From a bacterium (GTDB taxonomy: Bacteria > Bacteroidota > Ignavibacteria > UBA10030), in assembly GCA_043803945.1 (NCBI GenBank), contig JAZDJN010000114.1, positions 1 through 44,844 on the forward strand: a stretch of 44,844 bases of DNA, read 5' to 3'. Positions within the stretch are counted from its first letter, which is position 1. Each line of letters opens with the position of its first letter. Position numbers and translations under genes: made by a program. Below the pieces are notes generated by a model. It saw only the letters and a list, made by a program, of their open reading frames with translations, searched no databases and had not been told where the DNA came from. Positions 1,542 through 44,094 of the stretch are shown piece after piece.

Positions 1542-2405
1542 ATGAGTTATCTACCGGATGTTCTCAACAATGTAAAAGTCCTTATCACAGTAAAAACGTA
1601 TCCCCTTCCTTCCAATAAATATGGAGAGCTTGTTTGTACCGCCGGAGTTTTAGAAGACGGCAGATGGATTCGCGTTTACCCTATCCCGTTCCGATCACTT
1701 CCTCAAGAAAAGAAATTCGGAAAATATGAATGGATACAAATGGATCTGGTTCGCAACGCGAGTGATTTCCGACCGGAGAGTTACAGGCCAAAGTCCGATG
1801 CATCAAGTATCCATATCCTTAAGAAAGTCGGGACTGAACACGAATGGGCTGAGAGGAAAAAATATATCCTAAAGGATGTGTTCACCTCTTTTAAAGCACT
1901 TATCGATTTAGCAAAAAGTGATACAAAGAAGTCTTTGGCAACGTTTCGACCACGTGAGATCATCGAATTCGTTATAGAAAAGGATACACGCACATGGAAA
2001 GAACAATGGATTGCAAATTATGAACAATATGATTTGTTCGAAATCGATGAGAAGGGTGAAGGTATTCTTCGCAAGATTGTGGATAAGGTACCGTATAAAT
2101 ATTCCTATCGATTCTTGTGCGACGGAGAAGCAAAGCCCCGCACTCTGATGATCGAAGATTGGGAAATCGGTGCGCTCTATTGGCATTGTCTGGAACAAGC
2201 AGGTAGGGATGAAGTCGAAGCCAATAAACTTGTTCGGAAGAAGTATTTTGAAGAGTTTTTGAGTAAAAAAGATCTCCATCTCTTTGTAGGGACAACAAAG
2301 CAATATCACAATGTTGCACCGAATCCTTTTATTATCGTTGGTGTATTTTATCCGCCGACGAAGAAAGATTTCGGACAGGAGACTTTGTTTTCCGAATATA
2401 ACTAA
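1542..2405 (+). CDS. Conserved hypothetical protein, DUF488 partner (possible OB-fold nucleic-acid binder)
   Basis: 287 aa, GGAGGG RBS, 18 bp after the DUF488 gene. Motifs TVKTYP-PS-KY-ELVCTAG, WIRVYPIPFR and IEDWEIGALYW. Confidence 0.75.
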   Translation: MSYLPDVLNNVKVLITVKTYPLPSNKYGELVCTAGVLEDGRWIRVYPIPFRSLPQEKKFGKYEWIQMDLVRNASDFRPESYRPKSDASSIHILKKVGTEHEWAERKKYILKDVFTSFKALIDLAKSDTKKSLATFRPREIIEFVIEKDTRTWKEQWIANYEQYDLFEIDEKGEGILRKIVDKVPYKYSYRFLCDGEAKPRTLMIEDWEIGALYWHCLEQAGRDEVEANKLVRKKYFEEFLSKKDLHLFVGTTKQYHNVAPNPFIIVGVFYPPTKKDFGQETLFSEYN

Positions 2406-2499
2406 AACATTTGTTCTATCTTGGTATAAAGATTTATCCATGTAAATATCCACTCCGAATCTATACAATAGAAATACTCACACATAGTAGGAGTATGAG

Positions 2500-3891
2500 A
2501 TGAAAAACAACAATGTTTCTCGTCGCGACCTGCTGAGGCTTGGCGGACTCTTTGCCGCTGGCATTCCACTATCACAGCTCTTTGCGAACGAAATTGACAA
2601 CGCACAGCCAATTGTCTTTCCCCAGGATCCTCATGATAAAAAATCATCCCGGCCCATTACGGCCATTGTGCTTGGCGCGGGTAACCGGGGCAATGTCTAT
2701 TCTGCGTATAGTGAGCGATTTCCGGATGAGTTGAAAATCGTCGGTGTTGCCGAGCCGATCGAGTTTCGCCGCAAGCGATTTGCTGCACGGTATAAAATTC
2801 CCGAGAAGCACCAATGGACCACCTGGGAGCATGCATTGCAGGTGCCTAAATTCGCCGATGCAGTGATTATCACTACCCCCGATAATCTTCATTACGGTCC
2901 GGCTATGGGAGCGCTGGCTCTCGGCTATGATATGATACTTGAGAAAGCAATCGCACAAACCTGGCAGCAATGCAACGACATTCTGAAGATGGCACAGAAC
3001 GGAAAACGCATTGTCGCGATCTGCCATGTTCTGCGCTACTCACCCTACTATCGCAAGATGAAAGAAGTGATCGATTCAGGCGTTTTGGGAGATCTCGTCA
3101 GCATCCAGCATTTTGAGCCTGTCGAACACATCCACATGTCGCACTCATTTGTGCGCGGCAACTGGCGGAACTCGAAGGAATCGAATTTCATGCTGCTCTC
3201 CAAATCGTGTCACGACCTGGACATCCTGCGCTGGTGGATTGGCAAGTCATGCAAACGAGTTTCTTCGTTTGGTTCACTCAAGCACTTTACATCGAAGAAT
3301 GCCCCTGCCGGCAGCACAAAACGCTGCACCGACGGTTGTGCAGTCGAATCAACCTGTCCCTATTCCGCTTTGAAAATCTACTATCGAAACCGTTCGTATC
3401 TGGGGCATATGGATTTACCCGCTCAGGGCGATCAGGGGCCGGCGATTCTCCAGAATCTCAAAGATGGTTGGTATGGACGCTGCGTCTATCATTGTGATAA
3501 CGATGTGGTCGACCACCAGATTGTCAATATGGAGTTTGAAGATCAAATTACCGTTGCCTTCTCGATGGAAGCTTTCACGTCGTATGCCGGCCGGCGAACA
3601 CGAGTGATGGGAACAATGGGCGATGCTGTCGGCGATGAGCAAACGTTGGCGGTCGTCGATTTTCATACCGATAAGCTAACGCTCTGGGATGCACGTAAGG
3701 ATGCAGATATCGCTTCAGGTCACGGCGGCGGAGACTTTGGGCTGGTCCACGATTGGGTGCGGGCGGTTAGCTTTAAAAATCCCCAGCTCCTTACATCGAC
3801 AATCGAAGCATCGATGGAAAGCCATCTGATCGGTTTCCGTGCAGAGGAGAGCAGATTGAATGGGAACACAGTGGAAGTGAGAATGGAGTAG
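2500..3891 (+). CDS. Tat-exported Gfo/Idh/MocA family oxidoreductase
   Basis: SRRDLL twin-arginine leader, GAGNRG Rossmann motif, EKAIA, KSCHDLD and GHGGGD. Confidence 0.9.
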   Translation: MKNNNVSRRDLLRLGGLFAAGIPLSQLFANEIDNAQPIVFPQDPHDKKSSRPITAIVLGAGNRGNVYSAYSERFPDELKIVGVAEPIEFRRKRFAARYKIPEKHQWTTWEHALQVPKFADAVIITTPDNLHYGPAMGALALGYDMILEKAIAQTWQQCNDILKMAQNGKRIVAICHVLRYSPYYRKMKEVIDSGVLGDLVSIQHFEPVEHIHMSHSFVRGNWRNSKESNFMLLSKSCHDLDILRWWIGKSCKRVSSFGSLKHFTSKNAPAGSTKRCTDGCAVESTCPYSALKIYYRNRSYLGHMDLPAQGDQGPAILQNLKDGWYGRCVYHCDNDVVDHQIVNMEFEDQITVAFSMEAFTSYAGRRTRVMGTMGDAVGDEQTLAVVDFHTDKLTLWDARKDADIASGHGGGDFGLVHDWVRAVSFKNPQLLTSTIEASMESHLIGFRAEESRLNGNTVEVRME

Positions 3892-4019
3892 GCGAGATTG
3901 TTGCCGATACTTGGTGAACATAGTACGTCGTAAATCAGATTGTGTTTGGTTATTGCTATATGTACTTGGTAGTATTGGATTTCGTGAACTCGTTGAGCAC
4001 TTAGATAGCCCAAAATTTC

Positions 4020-4729
4020 GGGGGTGACTAAAAAGAAAATAGCATACTAACCCGAAGGCGTCCCCGCCTGCTCATTAAGAATCATTCAGGGTGGGCAGGT
4101 CGCCGAGGGAAATAGCGAAATTATTATGCTCGGCGAGGACGCCTTCGCACTAGAAAATACTTTTTGGTTAGCCTCAGTAATAGCGGTGGTGAAAAAAATA
4201 CTGATAGAAATTGCGGACTCGGCATTGTCAGAGAAAACATTGAAGGGGTCAGGAGCAAACTCCAGACGCCACTTCCGCATCCGTGCAAAGAATATCGGCG
4301 TTTGTCCTGAAGGCCACCCCGGTGCCGGCGGAAAAGCATGGCTCTTTCTCGATGAGATAATGGTGAGGTAGGTGCTGGGGCTGACTAAAAAGAAAATATT
4401 ATACTAACCCGAAGGCGTCCCCGCCTGCTCATTAAGAATCATTCAGGGTGGGCAGGTCGCCGAGGGAAATAGCGAAATTATTATGCTCGGCGAGGACGCC
4501 TTCGCACTGGAAAATACTTTTTGGTCAGCCTCAGTAATAGCGGTGGTGAAAAAAATACTGATAGAAATTGCGGACTCGGCATTGTCAGAGGAAACATTGA
4601 AGGGGTCAGGAGCAAACTCCAGACGCCACTTCCGCATCCGGGCAAAGAATATCGGCGTTTGTCCTGAAGGCCACCCCGGTGCCGGCGGAAAAGCATGGCT
4701 GTTTCTCGATGAGATTGTAGTGAGGTAGT
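4020..4729. repeat. Two tandem copies of a ~353-bp unit (period 357 bp): palindromic MITE-like element plus a gene 3' fragment
   Basis: Copies at 4020-4372 and 4377-4729 are near-identical. Each begins with a ~156-bp element with terminal IRs (GGGGCTGACTAAAAAG / CTTTTTGGTCAGCCTC) and ends in ...RAKNIGVCPEGHPGAGGKAWLFLDEIxVR-stop. Confidence 0.95.
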
Positions 4730-4800
4730 GGCAAGTTAAGAACTTGCTACTACTTTTTGGGGAATGCTGAAAAACCATTTTCTATCGTTCAGTACACTGA

Positions 4801-4940
4801 TAGAGAGCCGGTTAAAAAATCTGCCACAGAGACACTGAGTTCACTGAGATTGGTGAATATCTTTTAGATCCTCAATTTTTTTACATCATCTCTGTGTTCT
4901 CTGAGACTCTGTGGCAAAGTCATTTTTCGAACAGATATAT
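4801..4940. repeat. Palindromic intergenic element with 9-mer periodic arms
   Basis: TGCCACAGAGACACTGAGTTCACTGAGAT ... ATCTCTGTGTTCTCTGAGACTCTGTGGCA form inverted arms. Confidence 0.8.
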
Positions 4941-5102
4941 AGAAACTTGGACGAAAAGTCCAACCACAAAGGACACTAAGGATGCGAAGAATAAAAAGGA
5001 AAAGGAGTAATTGAAATTTAAATTAATTCAACAGTTTTTCCTTTGTGTCCTTGGTGAACTTTGTGGTTTGATTATGTTCTTAACTTTTCGGCCAGATCTC
5101 TA
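4940..5102. repeat. Second palindromic element with outer IRs and inner 9-mer arms; its right end overlaps the uup stop codon
   Basis: Outer TAGAAACTTGGACGAAAAGT / ACTTTTCGGCCAGATCTCTA. Inner AACCACAAAGGACACTAAGGA / TCCTTGGTGAACTTTGTGGTT. Confidence 0.8.
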
Positions 5103-13784: not shown

Positions 13785-14531
13785 ATGAAGTTCGAAAACA
13801 AAGTTATTCTCGTCACTGCCGGTAACAGAGGAATCGGATTATCGACAACGAAGCTCTTTCTTGCTGAGGGAGCGAAGCTTGTTATTGCAGCCCGCAATCG
13901 TGAGCTGGGTGAACGGGTTGCAGCGGAACTTGGTGTCCACTTCGTTCAAACGGACGTTCGCAGTGCACAGGATTGCGAGCGAGCTGTAGCAGAAACGGTG
14001 AGGATTCATGGTCGGTTCGATGTTCTTGTCAATTGCGCCGGTATCATTCTGCGCTTCAAGACGGTGGAGGAGACAACAGAGGCACAGTGGGATGACCTGC
14101 TCGACACGAATCTCAAAGGAGCATTCCTCATGTCGAAGTATGCCATGCCGCATTTACGGAAGACGACAGGGACAATCGTGAATGTCGCCTCGTATGTGGG
14201 GCTTGTCGGATTTCCCGGTTCGGCTCCGTATGCAGCGTCCAAAGCGGGACTCGTAAATCTTACCCGCTCGATGGCGCTCGATCACGCGAAAGAGAATATT
14301 CGCATCAACTGTGTCTGTCCGGGCAGCGTTGCCACGGATATGATTACGGAGGCCTGGAATATGTTTCCGGATGTTGCTGAAGCAGAGCGGCTTTGGAAAT
14401 CGAAACATCCCCTGGGGCGCATCGCTCAGCCCGAAGAGGTTGCACGCGCGATTCTCTTCCTGGCCAGCAGCGAGGCGAGCTTCATTACCGGTGCGGCGTT
14501 GCCGGTGGATGGAGGAATTACGGCGGAGTGA
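13785..14531 (+). CDS. Classical short-chain dehydrogenase/reductase
   Basis: TAGNRGIG, VNCAG, YAASK, NCVCPG and VDGG motifs. Confidence 0.93.
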   Translation: MKFENKVILVTAGNRGIGLSTTKLFLAEGAKLVIAARNRELGERVAAELGVHFVQTDVRSAQDCERAVAETVRIHGRFDVLVNCAGIILRFKTVEETTEAQWDDLLDTNLKGAFLMSKYAMPHLRKTTGTIVNVASYVGLVGFPGSAPYAASKAGLVNLTRSMALDHAKENIRINCVCPGSVATDMITEAWNMFPDVAEAERLWKSKHPLGRIAQPEEVARAILFLASSEASFITGAALPVDGGITAE

Positions 14532-14532
14532 A

Positions 14533-14656
14533 GGAATGTGGGAATGTGGGAATATGGGAATGAGGGAAATGTGGAATTAGGATTGTAAAATGCTAAATTG
14601 AGATTGAAAGAATGGGAGATTGATGATGAAGCAGAAGAAAATGGCGAATGACGAAT
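14533..14656 (+). repeat. Degenerate purine-rich 8-mer tract (GGAATGTG)n
   Basis: GGAATGTGGGAATGTGGGAATATGGGAATGAGGGAAATGTGGAA begins directly after the SDR stop codon. Confidence 0.8.
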
Positions 14657-14810: not shown

Positions 14811-14862
14811 GCATAACCAAACGAGCGAGCGTCGCAAGCACGATTGATATACGCCGCGCAGC
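14811..14862 (-). mobile_element. Shortened, degenerate attC site closing the cassette array
   Basis: Minus strand reads GCTGCGCGGC-GTATATC (mutated R'') ... GTTATGC (R'), 14 bp after the 14877 stop codon. Confidence 0.6.
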
Positions 14863-14876
14863 GAAACAAAAAATCG

Positions 14877-15791
14877 TCAGTCTTGTCGTGGATTAAGGGT
14901 TTTTGAAAATAAGGTGTATAATGCCTCGGTCTCTTCTAACCACCACTCAGTGCCGCAAACAAGCCAGCCGTGTGGAAGAATGTTCAATTGAGAGTGATTA
15001 TGAAGTAACGAAAGACTGCCTAGCTCAACACTACTGGTGAATAATGGATGAGAATTAGAGAAGATCAAAGCGCTTATGAAACCATAGGTACAGTCAAGGA
15101 AAATGTTAGTGGGCACCAATGCACCGGACTTCTTTACTATCTGAGATCTGCCCTTGGGGCCCTCATAGATGACTTGTTTGGTATTTACGTCGAGAATTAT
15201 TGAATCTTGGCCAAGGGGCAAAACAGCCTGAATTACATATGGAAGACTGCCCAAGAGGTTTGTGCCCGAATACTGAATCGGCAGGCCTGCTCCATTTATA
15301 GCAATCAGGAATGGATCGTTAGGTGGCACAAGTCCCTTGCTCAAATGGCGCAAGTGGTTACAGTATTTGTCTCTGATTGCAGAACAGAAACGAAGTACGA
15401 TCTGATCATCGGGAATAACATTAAAAGAATGAGTCATGGGATTGTTTACGTCCTTAAGTGAATCAGGTCCTTTCCCAATTTCTGGTGTGACAGCTTCGAT
15501 CCAAACGTGGGATTTCTCTTGTGCGATGCAGAAGTCTGGTCCGGATGATGGACGAGCATTTTTTGGCACAAGAGTGAAACCAGAATTAAGTAAAGCGCAA
15601 CCGAGATACATCTCCCAGAAGTGAGATATACACTTTTGCGGAAAAGAACAGTCAAAATCTCTGTCAGCGTATGGTTGGAACTGATCATTATAGAGTCGGT
15701 TGATGAATGATCTTTGTTTAGCGAGATTTGAATTATCTCGTAGCTGAACATAGATTGAGTCGGATGAGTTTGTTGATTTGAACAGATCCAT
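14877..15791 (-). CDS. Hypothetical cassette protein, probable PD-(D/E)xK nuclease fold
   Basis: FWEMYLG...GPDFCI...VWIEAVTP pattern. Located between attC-like sites. Confidence 0.6.
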   Translation of the reverse strand: MDLFKSTNSSDSIYVQLRDNSNLAKQRSFINRLYNDQFQPYADRDFDCSFPQKCISHFWEMYLGCALLNSGFTLVPKNARPSSGPDFCIAQEKSHVWIEAVTPEIGKGPDSLKDVNNPMTHSFNVIPDDQIVLRFCSAIRDKYCNHLRHLSKGLVPPNDPFLIAINGAGLPIQYSGTNLLGSLPYVIQAVLPLGQDSIILDVNTKQVIYEGPKGRSQIVKKSGALVPTNIFLDCTYGFISALIFSNSHPLFTSSVELGSLSLLHNHSQLNILPHGWLVCGTEWWLEETEALYTLFSKTLNPRQD

Positions 15792-15804
15792 AATGATTCT
15801 TTCA

Positions 15805-15945
15805 TTGTTAACGGTCTGCTGTAACTATACTCCTTCGCAACAATCTTTTACCTTGGATTTTTTTAATCGCTGGTAACTGTTCGTATATTAAATTGTCATT
15901 TGATAACTCAATTCAAAATATTCGAAGCGAGAGGGGAGCGACTAC
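15805..15945 (-). other. Possible decayed internal attC half-site
   Basis: Minus strand TTACAGCAGACC-GTTAACA just upstream of the 15791 start, with weak arms CTCCTTCGC / GCGAGAGGGGAG. No R'' box found. Confidence 0.35.
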
Positions 15946-15966
15946 TATGTAAGATTGAGTAACTGA

Positions 15967-17367
15967 TTAGCCCGAGCAAATGTTAAGATATTTATGATAA
16001 AGGCGTGTAGTTTCTTGGTCTATATCTTGTTCAAATGTTATATATTCGATTACCACACCATTCTCTTTAGCAAGATTTCGTTTGAATTCATCACGTGCAA
16101 CAATTTCCGAATGACCTTCAATTCCGCCGAATATATCAATGGGGTGAAAATGTTGTTCTCCTTGATATTCAATTGCAAGATTGAAATCAGAAACAAATGC
16201 ATCGAAGCGCAGATGCTGTAACCACTTTGGCGAGTATTGAGTGAGTACTTCATGAGGATGAAACTTCAGGCGTAAAAGACGAACCATCTCTGCTTCTGAT
16301 AACCATCCTTCTCCCCTCAGAGGTAAATTATTTTCCAACCGAATCCATTTCTCAGCTTCAAGAAGAATCATTTTGATTGCTTGTGAAACCTCATTTTGCT
16401 CGTAGAAACCAAAGTTTCCAAGGATTGTTTTACCATAAAATGAAATGAAATCCGAATGATTCGTCAATTCGAACTCTAAAAGTTTTGAGTCAATTAGTCT
16501 ACAGAAATCTTTTTTATGAAAATCAATGATCAGTCGATTTATCAATCCCTTCGACAAATGCTCAACAACTATTTGTCCGTCAAGCTTTCGTTTTTCTTGG
16601 ACCAGAGACTTAAGAACAGATGTGGCAGTAGGAGCAGGATCAGCATATTTTGGACCTATCCCTAAATATGCTTTCTCTAAAATGTTATTAAACTCATTAT
16701 CGTTGTAGGTATCTGGTAGAGCTTTTGTGGTTTTTCCTAGTAGTCGAGTACGTATCTTTTCAAGGTTGGTACTTGAAATCCAGCGTTTTGCAGTCTGTTC
16801 TATAATTGATGCATTACCTAACCTTGCAGTTAGAATGGCCGCGGTTTTTGGGAATTCATTTTGAAAACTATTCCAGTTTCTTTGATCAATAATAGTAAAG
16901 TACTCTTGTACAGCTGCGATAGCAAGAGCATGTATTCTGTAGTCTGGAATTACAGCGACGGTTTCTTGTTCGAAGTATTTGAGAGAATCTCGATATTTAC
17001 CAAGTAAAAAACTACATTTCCAAAGTCTCCAGTAGTCTTTAAATCGGCCTGTATTATGAAAATCTTGATAAATTCTCAACGCCTCTTCGAATCGTCCCTC
17101 TTGTAAATATAGGTCTCCCACTTTAAAACCGTCGCCAACCACTACCAAATCGCTTATGGCAGTATCCTTTTTGCCATAAGTTAAATTGAGTTCTGCAATA
17201 TCTCGCTTGAGTTGGCGCTGTAGATCTAGATAATCCGTTAGATCATCCTGGGCTATTTCATATGCAATTCTGAGTAGACGTGTTGCCAAGATTGGTTTTT
17301 TATCTTGATCACGTGCTTGCCATGCATAATGCTTTATCAACATTACTAGAGAATATGGATCGATCAT
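15967..17367 (-). CDS. Helical/TPR-like N-terminus plus C-terminal Vsr/DUF559-like endonuclease domain
   Basis: VGDLYLQEGRFEEALRIY is TPR-like. C-terminal WLQHLRFDAFV...AIEYQGEQHF..IDIFGG...RDEFK. Visibly AT-rich compared with the backbone. Confidence 0.7.
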   Translation of the reverse strand: MIDPYSLVMLIKHYAWQARDQDKKPILATRLLRIAYEIAQDDLTDYLDLQRQLKRDIAELNLTYGKKDTAISDLVVVGDGFKVGDLYLQEGRFEEALRIYQDFHNTGRFKDYWRLWKCSFLLGKYRDSLKYFEQETVAVIPDYRIHALAIAAVQEYFTIIDQRNWNSFQNEFPKTAAILTARLGNASIIEQTAKRWISSTNLEKIRTRLLGKTTKALPDTYNDNEFNNILEKAYLGIGPKYADPAPTATSVLKSLVQEKRKLDGQIVVEHLSKGLINRLIIDFHKKDFCRLIDSKLLEFELTNHSDFISFYGKTILGNFGFYEQNEVSQAIKMILLEAEKWIRLENNLPLRGEGWLSEAEMVRLLRLKFHPHEVLTQYSPKWLQHLRFDAFVSDFNLAIEYQGEQHFHPIDIFGGIEGHSEIVARDEFKRNLAKENGVVIEYITFEQDIDQETTRLYHKYLNICSG

Positions 17368-17415
17368 GGTATTTTTATCTATTAAGCAAGCTAATCCGAT
17401 AAAATGCTGCGTGGC

Positions 17416-17570
17416 GTATAACGTTTGCGGTGGTAACGCAGCCCCGCCCGCCGCTATGAAAAAACATAATTGGGTGGCGAGGCGGGGTTGAGCGACCTCA
17501 ATAACATGATTTACATAGATTCATATTCGGTTTATCAGACAAGGGAGCGTCATTACCACCGCTGTTATGC
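17416..17570 (-). mobile_element. Integron attC recombination site (155 bp)
   Basis: Minus strand GCATAAC-AGCGGTGGTAA ... TTACCACCGC-AAAC-GTTATAC: R''/R'-like boxes, a perfect 10-bp stem and an inner GC hairpin. Lies between two co-oriented genes. Confidence 0.85.
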
Positions 17571-17645
17571 GCAGCGCAGCCGTTCCGTGCTCAATATTGA
17601 TCAAAAGGATTGAGCTGATTGAATAGACATATATTTGCAAATGAT

Positions 17646-18416
17646 TCAACTGTCCTCGATTCGACGTACCTTGAATTCCCCTGGGACTTTCTGCATCTGA
17701 TAAAGTTGAGTTGGAGACCCAGCTAGAATTGTGGAAATAATTTCCTTGCGAACATCTGAGATTTCACAACCGAAGTAGATAGCTGTCAACGATTGAGCTT
17801 GGATGCTATATTGTTGATCACCCACCATATGAAAAATACGCCACTCTTTCTCATATGACCAGTGTTTCGATTTTGTCCATACCAAAGCCATAAGAGGCTG
17901 GCTTGGCTCTTCTTTGAGAAATTCAACTGGATTCAATGTAGGGAGAACGTCTGAATAGTCTACAGGATTTGCTTTGTGGAACGGATCGTAGTGTGTGTCG
18001 AATTCTAGGCAAAATCCGCGATGGCCATCTGTGTAATGAGACCACATCAGAATGTCGTCGAAGGTCTCGGAGAAACAAGCAACTCCACGGTCATTCAATG
18101 TCGTGTTTAGGCGGCGATCGAAATAGTCCTTGATTAGAGAGCGAATATGATCTTTGAATACATCGTTACAGTTTCCGTCGCGAGAGTACACAATATCGAA
18201 CTCTTCCTTGTTCGAAATTGCCTCCCTAGCATCCTTGTAGATTCGCTGCCACTCGGTAGACGAAGGTTCTGAAAGAATAGGAGTGATAGCACAGTCAAAT
18301 GGGTCGTTGAATTGAGACGGCTTAGAAAACCGAAGCTGTCTGTTCTTCAGGTTGTCCAAAGATCGTACCGTATATGGTTGGTACTTGTAAAGTTTAGGTG
18401 GTAATTGAGCATCCAT
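17646..18416 (-). CDS. DUF2971-domain protein (gene cassette)
   Basis: LYKY, FNDPFDC, CFSE...LMWSHY...HRGFCLEF and KSKHWSYEKEWR motifs. Confidence 0.88.
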   Translation of the reverse strand: MDAQLPPKLYKYQPYTVRSLDNLKNRQLRFSKPSQFNDPFDCAITPILSEPSSTEWQRIYKDAREAISNKEEFDIVYSRDGNCNDVFKDHIRSLIKDYFDRRLNTTLNDRGVACFSETFDDILMWSHYTDGHRGFCLEFDTHYDPFHKANPVDYSDVLPTLNPVEFLKEEPSQPLMALVWTKSKHWSYEKEWRIFHMVGDQQYSIQAQSLTAIYFGCEISDVRKEIISTILAGSPTQLYQMQKVPGEFKVRRIEDS

Positions 18417-18451
18417 TGTATGATTGTCTAAAGAAGCCCAACTCCTGGTCA

Positions 18452-18480
18452 GGCTGTGTTGCGCATAACGTTTAGGTAAT
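18452..18480 (-). mobile_element. First crossover site of the array (attI-like or remnant attC R')
   Basis: Minus strand AAAC-GTTATGCGCAACACAGCC is complementary (16/18) to the cassette's own attC left end at 17564-17581. No partner arm is seen upstream. Confidence 0.65.
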
Positions 18481-18991
18481 CACATATTGCGTTTATTCCA
18501 TTTAAATCAGTATGAAGGCCGCAGTGCGACTATTTCTCCTATAGACACAAAAACCTCTTTCATCGATACACGAATCAGAAGGTCTATTGTTCAATAGCAT
18601 TATTTTCAGGAGTTGCACGGTTTACTCCTTCGGAAGTACTCTTAATCCTTCCCAATGGAATGCCCCAGCACGGTACTTAAGGTATGACTATTAGTGTCAA
18701 AGTAAAGATGTTTGCAGGTATAGTCAATAGCACAAATCGGTGATGGTTGGAATATCTATGTCGCAGGAATGAAGACGAAGTAAGTAAAGTGGATTTTCCT
18801 TGTTACTCATCCATACATCCACCTTGCCTCTGATTCTAAACATATTGACGGGTAATCCAACATTCTACACCCCGATCGAAATATAACAGTAAGAGTGATT
18901 TCAATTCTCTCTGCTGTTCGACTCCTTCCTTGTTAACCTCCGCGGTCAGCAGCGCTTCAAGAAATTAATGGGGTAAGTAATCAGAAACGCC

Positions 18992-19024
18992 TACGTCGCT
19001 GGAGAGTTGCCGCGGCTTAGGCAT
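18992..19024 (-). pseudogene. hicA: N-terminal remnant of a HicA toxin
   Basis: The ATG overlaps the hicB end. MPKPRQLSSDV resembles a HicA start (MPKLxxLSG) and similarity then stops. Confidence 0.5.
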
Positions 19025-19250
19025 TGGAAGGCTCTAATTCCATCGTCAGCAAGAGCGTGGGATTCGGGGCTAGACCAAATTCAGCAGGATTTTCATTCTC
19101 AAGATGGAGAGCGACAGCTTCGCGCAGATTCGCGATGGTTTCGTCCAGAGTGCGCCCTTGAGTAACAACGCTGATCTCTAGGCACTCAGCAACGTATTGG
19201 TTTTCGCCTTTTCTGATGAAGGCCTTGATGTTGTGTTGGAGTGCAGTCAT
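19017..19250 (-). CDS. hicB: HicB family antitoxin (short form)
   Basis: YVAECLEISVVTQGRTLDETIANLREAVALHLE. Confidence 0.88.
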   Translation of the reverse strand: MTALQHNIKAFIRKGENQYVAECLEISVVTQGRTLDETIANLREAVALHLENENPAEFGLAPNPTLLLTMELEPSNA

Positions 19251-19399
19251 ACGATTCTTTCTCCGATTGATCTCTATTTTAATAGTAGTTAATTGAATCA
19301 AGAGATTCAAGAGGCACAAACAAATTGGGAATAATTGGAAGATGAAGGTCGCAGGAATGAAGACGAAGTAATGTACCTAATGGTGTGTGTCTAATAAAT

Positions 19400-19605
19400 T
19401 GGATTCAGCATCAAATTCCGCAGTCAATATTTCGCATTCCGTATTTAAACCCCCTCATTTCGCATTCAAAATTCCGTATTCTTCATCTTCCTCCTATCTT
19501 TTGCATTTATCTGTTTTCTGCTGGCTGCTATCTGCCGTCTACTTTCATCTCACTTCTCTCGTCTTACTATTCTCGTCTCACTTCTCACGTCTTACATCTC
19601 ACCCC
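19400..19605. repeat. Mosaic of degenerate 7-mer tracts (ATTCCGC, TTCTGCT, TCTCACT types)
   Basis: Pyrimidine-rich on the plus strand with 7-bp periodicity, e.g. TCTCACTTCTCACGTCTTACATCTCAC. Confidence 0.7.
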
Positions 19606-19675
19606 TCATTCCAATAAACCGACCGTCTTCTCCACCTCCTCCAGTATTTCGCACGACTTCACAACACCCTTGCAT
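19606..19675 (-). repeat. Diverged duplicate of the last 22 codons of the ammonia-lyase gene
   Basis: Encodes KGVVKSCEILEEVEKTVGLLE* versus the gene end KGVVKSCEILEEVEKTVGSLE* (19764-19829). Confidence 0.92.
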
Positions 19676-19707: not shown

Positions 19708-19757
19708 AGAAGTCCGTCTTTTACCTTTGATTGATCATTGTAAAAAGACGGACTTCT
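19708..19757. mobile_element. 50-bp empty element with a perfect 15-bp terminal IR (may also act as terminator)
   Basis: AGAAGTCCGTCTTTT ... AAAAGACGGACTTCT. The same ends recur at 42457, 44094 and 44368. Confidence 0.7.
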
Positions 19758-19763
19758 TCAAAG

Positions 19764-21287
19764 TTACTCCAGTGAACCTACCGTCTTCTCCACTTCCTCC
19801 AGAATTTCGCACGACTTCACAACACCTTTCATACGCGTATGATCGGGATAGAGCGGTCGGTCCTCATCAAGATGATCGACATGCTTGCGGATGATCTCTT
19901 TTGCTTTTCTCACACCGATACCGGGTGTGAACTCACGGAAATCGAGCGCCTGCGCCGCGGCAATCAATTCAATGCCAAGAATACCGTACGCATTGTCAAG
20001 AATCTGTCCATTTTTAATTGCCGTGTTCATTCCCATGGAAACAAAATCTTCCTGGTCTGCAGCAGCAGGGATGGAAGCGACGGATGCAGGGGCTGAAAGT
20101 ATACGCTGCTCAACAATCAACATGTCCGCTGTGTATTGGCTTAGCATCAAACCGGAAAACATACCAGCACCTTTTGTAAGAAACGCAGGGAGTCCTACAC
20201 TCAGTGCCGGATTCAACAGCCGGTTCAACCTTCGTTCTGAAAGGACACTCACCATTGTCACCGCTGCTCCCACCATATCCATTGGGAGTGAGATAGGCGA
20301 GCCCTGGAAATTTGCACCGGTGAGCGTAAGCCGATGTTCAGGCAGGAATATCGGATTATCGGCAACGGCGTTTAATTCTATCTCAACCTGACGTCTTGCA
20401 TGTGCAACTGCATCGTGTGCTGCACCGATCACCTGAGGTGAAGAACGCATCGAATAGGCATCCTGGACTTTTGTCTTGATCTTGCCTGAGAGCAGATCAC
20501 TTCCCTTGATACACGCCATAATTGCCTGCGCACTGCGAATGGCTCCTGGGAACCCGCGCAGCTCATGCAGCCGTACATCATAGGGTTTCATGTTTGCAAA
20601 TAATGCTTCAAGTGACATCGCGCATGCAATCTCAGCCTGCTTCAACCACCGATTGATATCGTAAAGGTGAATTGCACTCATCGCAGTTAATAGATTTGAA
20701 CCATTGATTGCCGCCAGTCCATCTCGTGCTTGCAATCCGGGAATTGGAATACCGGCTCGCTCCATTGCAGTGCGGCCCGGAAGTATCTCGTCGCGGTAAT
20801 ACGCTTCACCTTCACCCATTAACAGCAGGGCGATTTGAGACATGGGAGCAAGATCACCGCACGCACCAACCGATCCTTTTTGGCACACAACCGGTGTCAC
20901 ACCCTTATTCAGCATCTCGACAAGTGTGAGGGTAATTTCGGGACGGCACCCGGATTTGCCTCGTGCATGAACATTAATTCTGCCCGCCATTGCACCGCGC
21001 ACATACTCAATCGGAGCCGGATCGCCGATGCCAGCGGCGTGGTTGTAAATCAAGTATCTCTGGAATTGCTTTACTTGATCATCGTTCAAAACGATTTCGG
21101 AGAATTCTCCGATGCCGGTGTTAGTACCGTACATAATTTCGCGTGCCTGAAGTTTTTCTTCCAACATTGCACGGCATGCTTTAATACGTTCAAGAGCGTC
21201 GGCATGTAACTCAACGGGTTCATTGTATCTGGCAATTCGGACAAGCTGTTCAATGGTAAGTCCGCTTCCTTGGAGTACGATGGGCAT
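19764..21287 (-). CDS. hutH: Aromatic amino acid ammonia-lyase, histidine ammonia-lyase-like, with Ala-Cys-Gly at the MIO site
   Basis: YGTNTGIG, GSVGACGDLAP, INGS, QDAYSMR, DNP, GANFQG and QEDFVSMG motifs. Confidence 0.8.
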   Translation of the reverse strand: MPIVLQGSGLTIEQLVRIARYNEPVELHADALERIKACRAMLEEKLQAREIMYGTNTGIGEFSEIVLNDDQVKQFQRYLIYNHAAGIGDPAPIEYVRGAMAGRINVHARGKSGCRPEITLTLVEMLNKGVTPVVCQKGSVGACGDLAPMSQIALLLMGEGEAYYRDEILPGRTAMERAGIPIPGLQARDGLAAINGSNLLTAMSAIHLYDINRWLKQAEIACAMSLEALFANMKPYDVRLHELRGFPGAIRSAQAIMACIKGSDLLSGKIKTKVQDAYSMRSSPQVIGAAHDAVAHARRQVEIELNAVADNPIFLPEHRLTLTGANFQGSPISLPMDMVGAAVTMVSVLSERRLNRLLNPALSVGLPAFLTKGAGMFSGLMLSQYTADMLIVEQRILSAPASVASIPAAADQEDFVSMGMNTAIKNGQILDNAYGILGIELIAAAQALDFREFTPGIGVRKAKEIIRKHVDHLDEDRPLYPDHTRMKGVVKSCEILEEVEKTVGSLE

Positions 21288-21397
21288 AGAATTTCCTTTT
21301 AGCTGAGGGATAACGAAGATTTGACAAAATGTAGGTGTGCTTCAATTGAAAGGCAATGGTTAATTATTTGTTTTGATGAATTATCACATATAAGAAA

Positions 21398-21630
21398 TGG
21401 AATCAATGAATCAATTATCCATTGATCCAATGAACCCCTGACTCATTGAATCATTGAGCCATTTTCCAATCGTCATTCCCCAATCCTATTTTCGCTTCGT
21501 TCTCTCCTCTATTCTCATATTCCCATATTTCTTCATTCCCTATTTTTCTTCTCCCACTCTCATATTCTCACATTATCATATTCTCATATTTCCATATTCT
21601 CACACCCTCATACTTCTCCTCCTCTTACTT
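21398..21630. repeat. Degenerate 8-mer tracts in a divergent intergenic region
   Basis: GAATCAAT/ATTGAATC units, then ATTCTCATATTCCCATATTT...CATATTCTCACATTATCATATTCTCAT (the complement type of the 14533 and 26570 tracts). Confidence 0.75.
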
Positions 21631-42456: not shown

Positions 42457-44094
42457 AGAAGTCCGTCTTTTCTCATCGATCTGAAAGAGCTCTAAGAACA
42501 GTGAAAGATTGTACGAGAGTTATGCTGCAATAAAACAATGGGAGATTACCCACTATGGAGAAGAAAGAGTTTGTACGACTTGAACAAAGAGTACATAAGA
42601 AAGAACATGACGTAAGCCCCCAAATAAGCGATTCCTTCCGAAGAGAAACCCCTGGTGCCATCCAATTCCTCATGAATGAAATATTCAATTTATGGTGGTG
42701 TAAATTCCACCATCTAATGGTTGATTTTAACATGCCCAATTATTACCTTATACACAAATGATTACACGCCACATACAGAAAGCGCTGCAGGATGCATTAC
42801 GCGACACACCGGTGGTGTTCGTCAATGGCCCGCGACAGGCGGGAAAAAGCACTCTTGTCCATACTCTGATAGAAAAATCGTACTCCGCGACCTATGTCAC
42901 ATTCGACGATGCCACGATGCTTTCTGCTGCCCGTTCCGATCCGGCTGGATTTCTTCAGGGATTTTCTGGAAACCTTATTCTCGATGAGGTTCAGCGTGTT
43001 CCCGATTTGTTTCTTTCAATAAAAGCTGAAGTTGATCGCTCTCGGAAACCGGGTCGATTCATCCTTACCGGCTCTGCCAATGTCCTACTATTACCAAAGA
43101 TTGCCGAATCACTTGCCGGCAGAATGGAGATCCTTACACTTTGGCCCTTTTCACAGGGAGAAATCGAAAATAGGAGAGAGCGTTTCATCGATCGTATCTT
43201 TTCTGAAGCGCCAATCCATACTACTCTCGGAACAGTATCGAAGAACCAAATTATTGAAAGGGTTTCAATCGGAGGATTCCCGGAAGCTCTTTTGAGGGAT
43301 TCCGAGACAAGAAGGAATGCCTGGTATGGTTCATATATCACGACGATCCTTCAACGCGATGTGCGTGACATTTCCCGCTTAGAGGGGCTGACACAATTAC
43401 CCAAGTTATTATCGTTACTAGCAACGCGTGTTGCACAACTATTAAACATTGCCGCTCTCTCAAATGCCTGTGCAATTCCACAGACAACATTGAAACGCTA
43501 TCTCACTCTCCTGGAGACAACCTATCTTATCCATTTGCTGCCTGCATGGTCTGGTAATTTAGGTAAACGGTTGATCAAAACACCAAAGGCATTTTTGTGC
43601 GATACAGGTCTCTTGACATACTTACTGGGAAGCAATACGGCACAGTTACAAGCGCAAGCAACAATGTTTGGACCGGTGCTGGAGAATTTCATTATGATGG
43701 AATTATTGAAACAAATTTCGTGGAGCAAGACTGATCCTTCGCTATATCACTTTCGGACGTTGCGAGGTCAGGAGGTTGACCTTGTTCTAGAAGACCGTAA
43801 ACGGAACATCGTGGGGATCGAAGTTAAAGCCAGCAGCACGGTTACAAATGCAGACTTTAAGAACATCAAAGTGCTGCAAGAGATTAGCGGAAACAAATTC
43901 CACCGGGGAGTTGTTTTGTACACTGGATCGTCAATAATACCATTCGGCAAAAGCCTTTTTGCTTTCCCTGTTCACTCGCTTTGGATGCTGTAATCCTTCT
44001 TGCATGGAGATAAGCGATCATTTTTTTGCCACTCCAGAGGGGAAAGAAATTCGGCTTTTTCCTTTGATCTATCTGGGCAAAAAGATGGACTTCT
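42457..44094. mobile_element. 1.64-kb transposase-free element bounded by 15-bp IRs, carrying an AAA ATPase gene
   Basis: Left end AGAAGTCCGTCTTTT and right end AAAAGATGGACTTCT (14/15 match). Ends are shared with the 19708 and 44367 copies. Confidence 0.6.
42758..43993 (+). CDS. AAA_14 ATPase with DUF4143 and C-terminal PD-(D/E)xK-like tail
   Basis: GPRQAGKST, ILDEVQ, LTGSA, SLAGR, GGFPE, KTPK...DTGL and EVDLV...IEVK motifs. Confidence 0.92.
   Translation: MITRHIQKALQDALRDTPVVFVNGPRQAGKSTLVHTLIEKSYSATYVTFDDATMLSAARSDPAGFLQGFSGNLILDEVQRVPDLFLSIKAEVDRSRKPGRFILTGSANVLLLPKIAESLAGRMEILTLWPFSQGEIENRRERFIDRIFSEAPIHTTLGTVSKNQIIERVSIGGFPEALLRDSETRRNAWYGSYITTILQRDVRDISRLEGLTQLPKLLSLLATRVAQLLNIAALSNACAIPQTTLKRYLTLLETTYLIHLLPAWSGNLGKRLIKTPKAFLCDTGLLTYLLGSNTAQLQAQATMFGPVLENFIMMELLKQISWSKTDPSLYHFRTLRGQEVDLVLEDRKRNIVGIEVKASSTVTNADFKNIKVLQEISGNKFHRGVVLYTGSSIIPFGKSLFAFPVHSLWML

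Follow-up and report, generated by a model that had tools for sequence, protein, structure and literature searches.

Probable integron-type cassettes with defence-like genes, stranded between hutH and an SDR gene in an Ignavibacteria contig

Cassettes remote from any integron-integrase gene are classed as attC clusters devoid of an integron-integrase (CALINs) when they hold at least two attC sites, the default of IntegronFinder (10.1101/2022.02.28.482270; PMC4889954). Many CALINs are small, and loss of attC sites by slippage has been described; cassettes also enter chromosomes at secondary attG sites, where insertion takes place at GWT and hotspots show CRGM at positions +6 to +9, and from which excision is possible in the presence of an integrase (10.1101/2022.09.11.507474). 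In attC sites an extrahelical G is reported to set the choice of strand, and removal of all extrahelical bases to lower IntI recombination ~6-fold, with a loss of part of the selectivity (PMC2727003). Defence genes have been published as cargo of integron cassettes (10.1101/2024.07.02.601719; 10.1101/2024.07.02.601686), and Aristaios, a single-gene anti-phage system of the DUF2971 family with a predicted ADP-ribosyltransferase fold, has been tested (PMC11381338). Here we analysed a contig of 44,844 bases from an Ignavibacteria bacterium (JAZDJN010000114.1; hereafter the window, with positions on its forward strand), in which three minus-strand genes sit between an SDR gene and hutH. A previous reading made from the sequence alone had taken them for a CALIN of three excisable cassettes whose cargo is all defence-related. 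We consider it likely that these are genuine integron-type cassettes, stranded between hutH and the SDR gene, which an integrase acting in trans placed there by attG-type insertion and which carry probable anti-phage cargo; the number of cassettes and their mobility have to be revised.

The element is centred on one intact attC of 155 bp on the minus strand (17416-17570), located 3′ of the DUF2971 gene, with an R″ box GCATAAC at 17570-17564 and an R′ box GTTATAC at 17422-17416 that supply the AAC/GTT core. Folding of the bottom strand pairs the R boxes and gives -30.8 kcal/mol, a stability that none of 200 shuffles attains (z -4.13), while the top strand folds more weakly and leaves the R boxes unpaired. 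The complete attC of the sequence-only reading, for which this fold had been proposed as the check, is thus borne out. It is matched as well by a covariance model built from nine other sites (31.2 bits, E 5.8e-6), from which the Vibrio sites and one site of 3x5 register in locus L020 were left out; this is the sole significant match of the model in the window, the runner-up having an E value of 0.58. Rfam gave no match to the site, and a blastn search of plasmids with it and three related attC sites gave no real one. A script scan of the window for canonical attC geometry (4-6 nt spacers, both arms), run with no positive control and hence of little weight, returned nothing.

Cassette 1 is the DUF2971 gene alone (906 bp). 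Its left junction (18452-18469, minus strand) begins with the core site GTTATGC at 18469-18463, confirming the crossover site that had been marked there, with crossover G|TT at 18469/18468, and continues into a stretch that pairs with the end of the cassette (17564-17581, minus strand, including R″ GCATAAC). The complementarity of 16/18 noted earlier for these ends is correct, and both differences are G.T wobbles on the bottom strand. This start scores 17/20 in pairing, whereas the next best among 116 GTT sites scores 12.5. Cassette 2 (14846-17422, minus strand) measures 2,577 bp. It starts at 17422 with a sequence complementary to 14846-14862 (15/17). Because this start finds no partner between the 466-aa and 304-aa genes, where no pairing site reaches 13/17, both nuclease-like genes belong to one cassette, and there are two cassettes rather than three. 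A hidden attC between these two genes was considered and rejected (z -1.26, no pairing partner, no model match). Both cassettes hence have complementary ends that re-form an attC in the circle, as gene cassettes do; this is a general cassette property and no proof that they still move. The paired ends resemble those of related arrays; of 21 cassette ends examined, 15 have a well-paired start (at least 16/20), two of the other six being coordinate errors in our analysis. An A opposite G at position 11, which makes a G.T pair on the bottom strand, occurs in 14/15 well-paired cassettes vs 0/30 cassettes with Vibrio cholerae repeats (VCRs).

In the intact site a single base is left unpaired behind AAC and four are unpaired ahead of GTT (a 1x4 register); a perfect stem of 10 bp follows. 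Its predicted fold has no extrahelical base at the canonical L″ position after a near-symmetric spacer; the earliest bulges come 12 and 16 nt past AAC, and relatives do not conserve them. With a two-arm pattern derived from the site, 21 matches were obtained across 20 GTDB loci. Twelve of them, spread over 11 loci, are real sites by fold or score, the one in L017 is borderline and eight are chance-like; L011 and L018 represent the same site, and the loci contain additional sites beyond those that the pattern picked. The geometry is common to sites in Ignavibacteria, Bacteroidota (Bacteroidales) and Patescibacteria genomes, the closest ones being from Ignavibacteria, and in genomes of all three such sites punctuate arrays gene by gene. 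In L011, for instance, three of them part single genes like a classic array. All five inner stem pairs counted show compensatory changes, with a covariation of 0.326 that none of 500 shuffles reached and that slid controls kept at or below 0.083. The register is 1x4 in 19 of 21 family sites, 1x5 in one and unclear in one, and a perfect stem of 10-15 bp is present in 13/21. The search pattern forced 12 of the 21; among the nine chosen otherwise, eight are 1x4 and the ninth is 1x5. All six Vibrio controls have instead a symmetric 2x2 or 3x3 spacer, five pairs and then a bulge, and two R46 control sites show no clear register.

What enzyme would act on such sites? Since integrons are known in Ignavibacteriae and Chlorobi (10.1101/2022.02.28.482270), ordinary IntI enzymes may well use 1x4 sites. 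A rather unlikely alternative, compatible with the boundaries and cargo favoured here, is a sister system in which a divergent tyrosine recombinase reads the 1x4 spacer and not an extrahelical base. The register of the eight pattern-independent sites, set against the symmetric, bulged Vibrio sites, speaks for this alternative, as do the position-11 A:G pair and the failure of the family covariance model to give a significant match on any of 37 VCRs. An attC in locus L004 (1856-2007) is reversed relative to the cassette that it closes, and its R boxes are perfectly complementary; this single case fits weaker strand selectivity and counts for the sister system. On the other side, the AAC/GTT core, the bottom-strand bias and the order of gene and attC are all integron-like, one L020 site departs from the family with its 3x5 register, deletion of extrahelical bases costs IntI only ~6-fold (PMC2727003), and no recombinase gene was seen. 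No tyrosine recombinase matched by Pfam among the 27 open reading frames (ORFs) scanned of 110 listed on the contig, and a six-frame tblastn with IntI1 reached at best E 0.018, inside an unrelated ORF. The earlier statement that the window holds no such gene is therefore upheld, and over the whole contig the element lacks a nearby integron integrase as CALINs do.

The three co-oriented genes were recovered as ORFs at 17646-18416, 15967-17367 and 14877-15791, as first proposed. The first encodes a DUF2971 protein of 256 aa (PF11185, E 4.4e-9) that matches PADLOC model PDC-S31 over its full length (E 9.5e-63), so that it is covered by a whole-protein profile. PDC models stand for candidates rather than tested systems. 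Y12, C114, E189, E191, W192 and R193 are invariant in 33 sequences. These residues include an ExE motif that we take to be ADP-ribosyltransferase-like, and together they are consistent with the fold predicted for Aristaios. A search for solved structures related by sequence to the protein found none. In a Vibrio superintegron, a DUF2971 relative forms a cassette of its own, flanked by two VCRs.

The second gene encodes a 466-aa protein with N-terminal TPR-like helical repeats and a C-terminal Vsr-like endonuclease domain in its predicted model, for which the predicted local distance difference test (pLDDT) is 84.4 and the predicted template modelling score is 0.49. The domain matches known folds at Z 10.0-10.7, best with 3hrl (Z 10.7, root-mean-square deviation 2.7, 90 aligned), and Vsr itself (1cw0) at Z 10.1 (root-mean-square deviation 3.0, 105 aligned). 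D389, E400, Q402 and H406 are invariant in 11 sequences and form a catalytic-type D...ExQG..H motif, so that both fold and motif are those of a Vsr-like endonuclease. The family is rare, with ten full-length relatives. The protein probably joins a TPR sensor to a nuclease of Vsr-like type. On Arcobacter-group plasmids (L001:5419-7472) a relative of its nuclease domain stands directly before a DUF2971 gene, in a neighbourhood with HNH and DUF262 genes and no attC match.

The third gene encodes a 304-aa PD-(D/E)xK-like protein matching the PADLOC profiles of PD-T7-5 (E 1e-12, model positions 1-234 of 346) and PD-T7-1 (E 2.9e-7), remote matches that recur in 12/12 relatives tested. E60, P85-D86, E99 and K142 are conserved in its family, which is large and unnamed (921 clusters at E<=1e-30), and a search for solved structures related to it by sequence found none. 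We regard it as a probable PD-(D/E)xK nuclease, similar in kind to PD-T7-5/PD-T7-1. Neither of the two nuclease models yielded a Foldseek match at E<=0.001.

How far does this cargo support a defence role? The view that all of it is defence-related holds for two of the three genes by PADLOC models and lacks such support for the 466-aa protein. In related arrays, 14 bounded cassettes (one mis-fitted row being left out of the count) comprise three with defence-model genes, three with toxin-antitoxin pairs, four with other known domains, three with unknown genes and one without a gene. Since 6/14 thus carry defence or toxin-antitoxin genes, finding two defence-like cassettes out of two is unremarkable. 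It is conceivable, if rather improbable, that the cassettes are real and the nuclease genes serve against plasmids or in cell competition, or are neutral passengers. This alternative gains from the PADLOC-negative 466-aa family, from the candidate status of PDC models, and from the eight of 14 related cassettes that are non-defence, unknown or geneless. It has to contend with the existence of a tested anti-phage gene in the DUF2971 family (PMC11381338), and with the plasmid relatives of both nucleases, which lie among defence-type genes. The data give no support to a fixed system of two or three genes: the 466-aa protein has ten full-length relatives vs 921 clusters for the 304-aa protein, and in none of five plasmid loci checked do the two occur together. 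A relative of the 466-aa protein stands beside DUF2971 in one of three plasmid loci. Three related loci deserve mention: a multi-gene cassette of 5.1 kb in which a GmrSD protein accompanies a type ISP restriction-modification enzyme (L006:4877-10004); an Ignavibacteriaceae array (L014) with an empty cassette of 137 bp (884-1020) and two cassettes for type IX-secreted proteins (1648-4948); and a Bacteroidales array whose last attC is followed by a DRT9-like reverse transcriptase (L020:4308-5183).

The two ends of the element differ from the site in its middle. At the distal end lies an eroded attC on the minus strand (14811-14862). It consists of a cassette-end extension (14853-14862), an R″ box mutated to GTATATC (14846-14852; AAC to ATC), a left arm of 28 nt (14818-14845) and a GTTATGC (14811-14817), which represents either the remainder of an R′ box or the target in the chromosome. 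The left arm is collinear with that of the intact site, with 18/28 identical positions (binomial p ~1e-5), a score equalled at just one other place in the window. The degenerate attC postulated here is thus real as to its mutated R″ and left arm, but it has no right arm (L′), no fold (z -0.16) and no covariance-model match. Eroded sites are present in L014 and L020 as well. At the proximal end, DNA upstream of 18469 holds no attC, with no fold (z +0.76) and no model match; folding also led us to reject an attC, or a structured RNA, at 18463-18700. The upstream side of 18469 is either an attG-type secondary site or an attI remnant, and locus L016 has a similar non-attC left junction.

These ends decide both class and mobility. 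The CALIN label fits in so far as the cassettes have no integrase, but one folding site and a half site fall short of two attC sites; by the IntegronFinder default the unit would probably be filtered out or counted as a single attC site lacking an integron-integrase (SALIN). A SALIN, in turn, is a lone attC without another att site close by, and here an eroded second attC and a second cassette adjoin the intact one. The unit is an eroding two-cassette element between SALIN and CALIN. That the DUF2971 cassette can be excised, as had been expected, is doubtful: as no cassette has a working attC on both sides, a partner is missing for attC x attC excision. Since an integrase can also excise cassettes from attG sites, mobility is reduced rather than abolished.

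We propose the following course of events. Through an integrase acting in trans, the cassettes would have entered as circles at a secondary G|TT site of attG type, first the two-gene cassette and afterwards, in front of it, the DUF2971 cassette. The distal attC would then have lost its right arm and R″ triplet, so that no working attC pair was left and the genes became largely fixed. Any expression would have to come from a nearby chromosomal promoter or one within the cassettes. Each of the three cargo genes would encode an anti-phage effector that works by itself; for the DUF2971 protein, ADP-ribosylation leading to abortive infection, the mechanism proposed for Aristaios, is most likely.

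Several observations weigh against this account. The right flank fits only 3/4 letters of the CRGM attG motif, though the GTT core is present, and no promoter is prominent (8 found vs 12.8 expected). The geometry of the intact site departs from that of tested attC sites, and the covariance test is only partly independent, as the loci for the nine-site model were fetched with a pattern from the very site tested. Beside 1x4 sites, no integrase matched in 87 ORFs (11/12 loci), nor did IntI1 by tblastn, a negative that says little, since 10/12 loci end within 6 kb upstream. Neither the 466-aa protein nor its family has a PADLOC match, the matches of the 304-aa protein to PD-T7-5 and PD-T7-1 are remote (46 and 28 bits), and its predicted model (pLDDT 85.6) resembles PD-(D/E)xK nucleases weakly, with a best Z of 7.2.

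Could the element instead be what is left of a complete chromosomal integron, with 18469 as the R box of attI and intI deleted together with upstream DNA? The junction AAAC-GTT does resemble the R′ end of the 1x4 attC family, the upstream DNA is visibly rearranged (it contains a 52-nt repeat, its hicBA pair is broken and the end of hutH is duplicated), and integrons occur in Ignavibacteriae and Chlorobi according to the report cited above. However, the six-frame search shows no remnant of intI, there are only two cassettes, and 95% of CALINs are without a nearby intI pseudogene (PMC4889954), all of which makes this origin unlikely. A live CALIN of three excisable cassettes is highly improbable: one intact attC and paired cassette ends speak for it, against the lack of an attC between genes 2 and 3 and upstream of cassette 1 and a terminal site with no L′ arm and a mutated R″.

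According to the Pfam scan, the contig consists mostly of sugar-uptake and housekeeping genes. The SDR gene (13785-14531, plus strand) is convergent to the cassette genes, and hutH (19764-21287, minus strand) forms the other flank. The guanine-plus-cytosine (GC) content of the cargo is 0.37-0.44 vs 0.47-0.54 for ten flanking housekeeping genes, and four further accessory-looking genes of the window have 0.41-0.50. The final 62 nt of hutH are repeated with 90% identity 158 nt downstream (19610-19671 vs 19768-19829), with a strong hairpin between the two copies (19708-19757, z -6.4); duplicated end and hairpin could be the scar of a former element integrated at the hutH 3′ end. Plasmid HutH matches are only ~42% identical to HutH of the window. 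A direct repeat of 52 nt (18732-18783 and 19320-19371) with an identical 24-nt core, restricted to these two places within the window, brackets a module of 588 bp. A HicB-like ORF of 77 aa lies at 18990-19250 on the minus strand (Pfam DUF7387, E 4e-5) and is followed by the apparent opening codons of a truncated hicA; we presume that the two make up a HicAB pair. Short degenerate tandem repeats occupy intergenic positions (14527-14571, 19400-19607 and 21394-21466). Near one contig end (642-2405) lie a DUF488 gene of lower GC and a 287-aa ORF of no known family, and near the other (42758-43993) an AAA_14/DUF4143 gene, likewise of lower GC.

Compared with known defence systems, the DUF2971 protein shares with Aristaios (PMC11381338) the Pfam family and has a full-length PDC-S31 match; with 316 aa in Aristaios and 256 aa here, the two were compared via family and profile. 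The 304-aa protein shares with PD-T7-5 and PD-T7-1 a profile match over ~240 residues and PD-(D/E)xK-like motifs, yet belongs to a separate large family. Like the bacteriophage-resistance integron cassettes (BRiCs; 10.1101/2024.07.02.601719) and the cassettes of Vibrio sedentary integrons (10.1101/2024.07.02.601686; DUF2971 occurs nowhere in the main text of the latter paper), which are short and mostly carry single nuclease or abortive-infection genes, the array adds one case to the published defence-cassette theme, and its two nuclease families are candidates for cloning. Unlike them, it has no integrase or Pc platform, its host lies outside Gammaproteobacteria and its defence role is predicted. 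With CALINs and SALINs as described (PMC4889954; 10.1101/2022.02.28.482270; 10.1101/2022.09.11.507474) it shares chromosomal genes with attC, no nearby intI, small size and a left junction of GWT type, and differs in that just one attC still folds, with atypical geometry.

This geometry, a testable lead, matters more than the defence array. A literature search, mostly of open papers and excluding supplements, met no description of 1x4 geometry or of such arrays, which is weak evidence of novelty. Tentatively, and at some distance from what we consider likely, the sites of Ignavibacteria, Bacteroidota and Patescibacteria might form an undescribed attC class, with the strand chosen by the 1x4 loop, a required outer stem of 17-19 bp in the excised circle, its G.T wobble fixed, and a divergent integrase; standard models may largely miss this class, which would feed defence genes, including the putative TPR-Vsr nuclease, into the genomes of these groups. 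If detection models do miss 1x4 sites, cassette arrays are under-counted in genomes of the Fibrobacteres-Chlorobi-Bacteroidetes group and of Patescibacteria. Natural sites with no extrahelical base would also provide a direct test of the strand-choice rule in integron recombination. With canonical attC sites (VCR, aadA; PMC2727003) the present site has in common the RYYYAAC...GTTRRRY core, a bottom-strand hairpin, a variable terminal structure and complementary cassette ends. Where the canonical sites have a symmetric spacer, an extrahelical base and an end pairing of 9-11 nt, the site described here has a 1x4 spacer, a perfect stem of 10 bp and an end pairing of 17-18 nt with wobbles.

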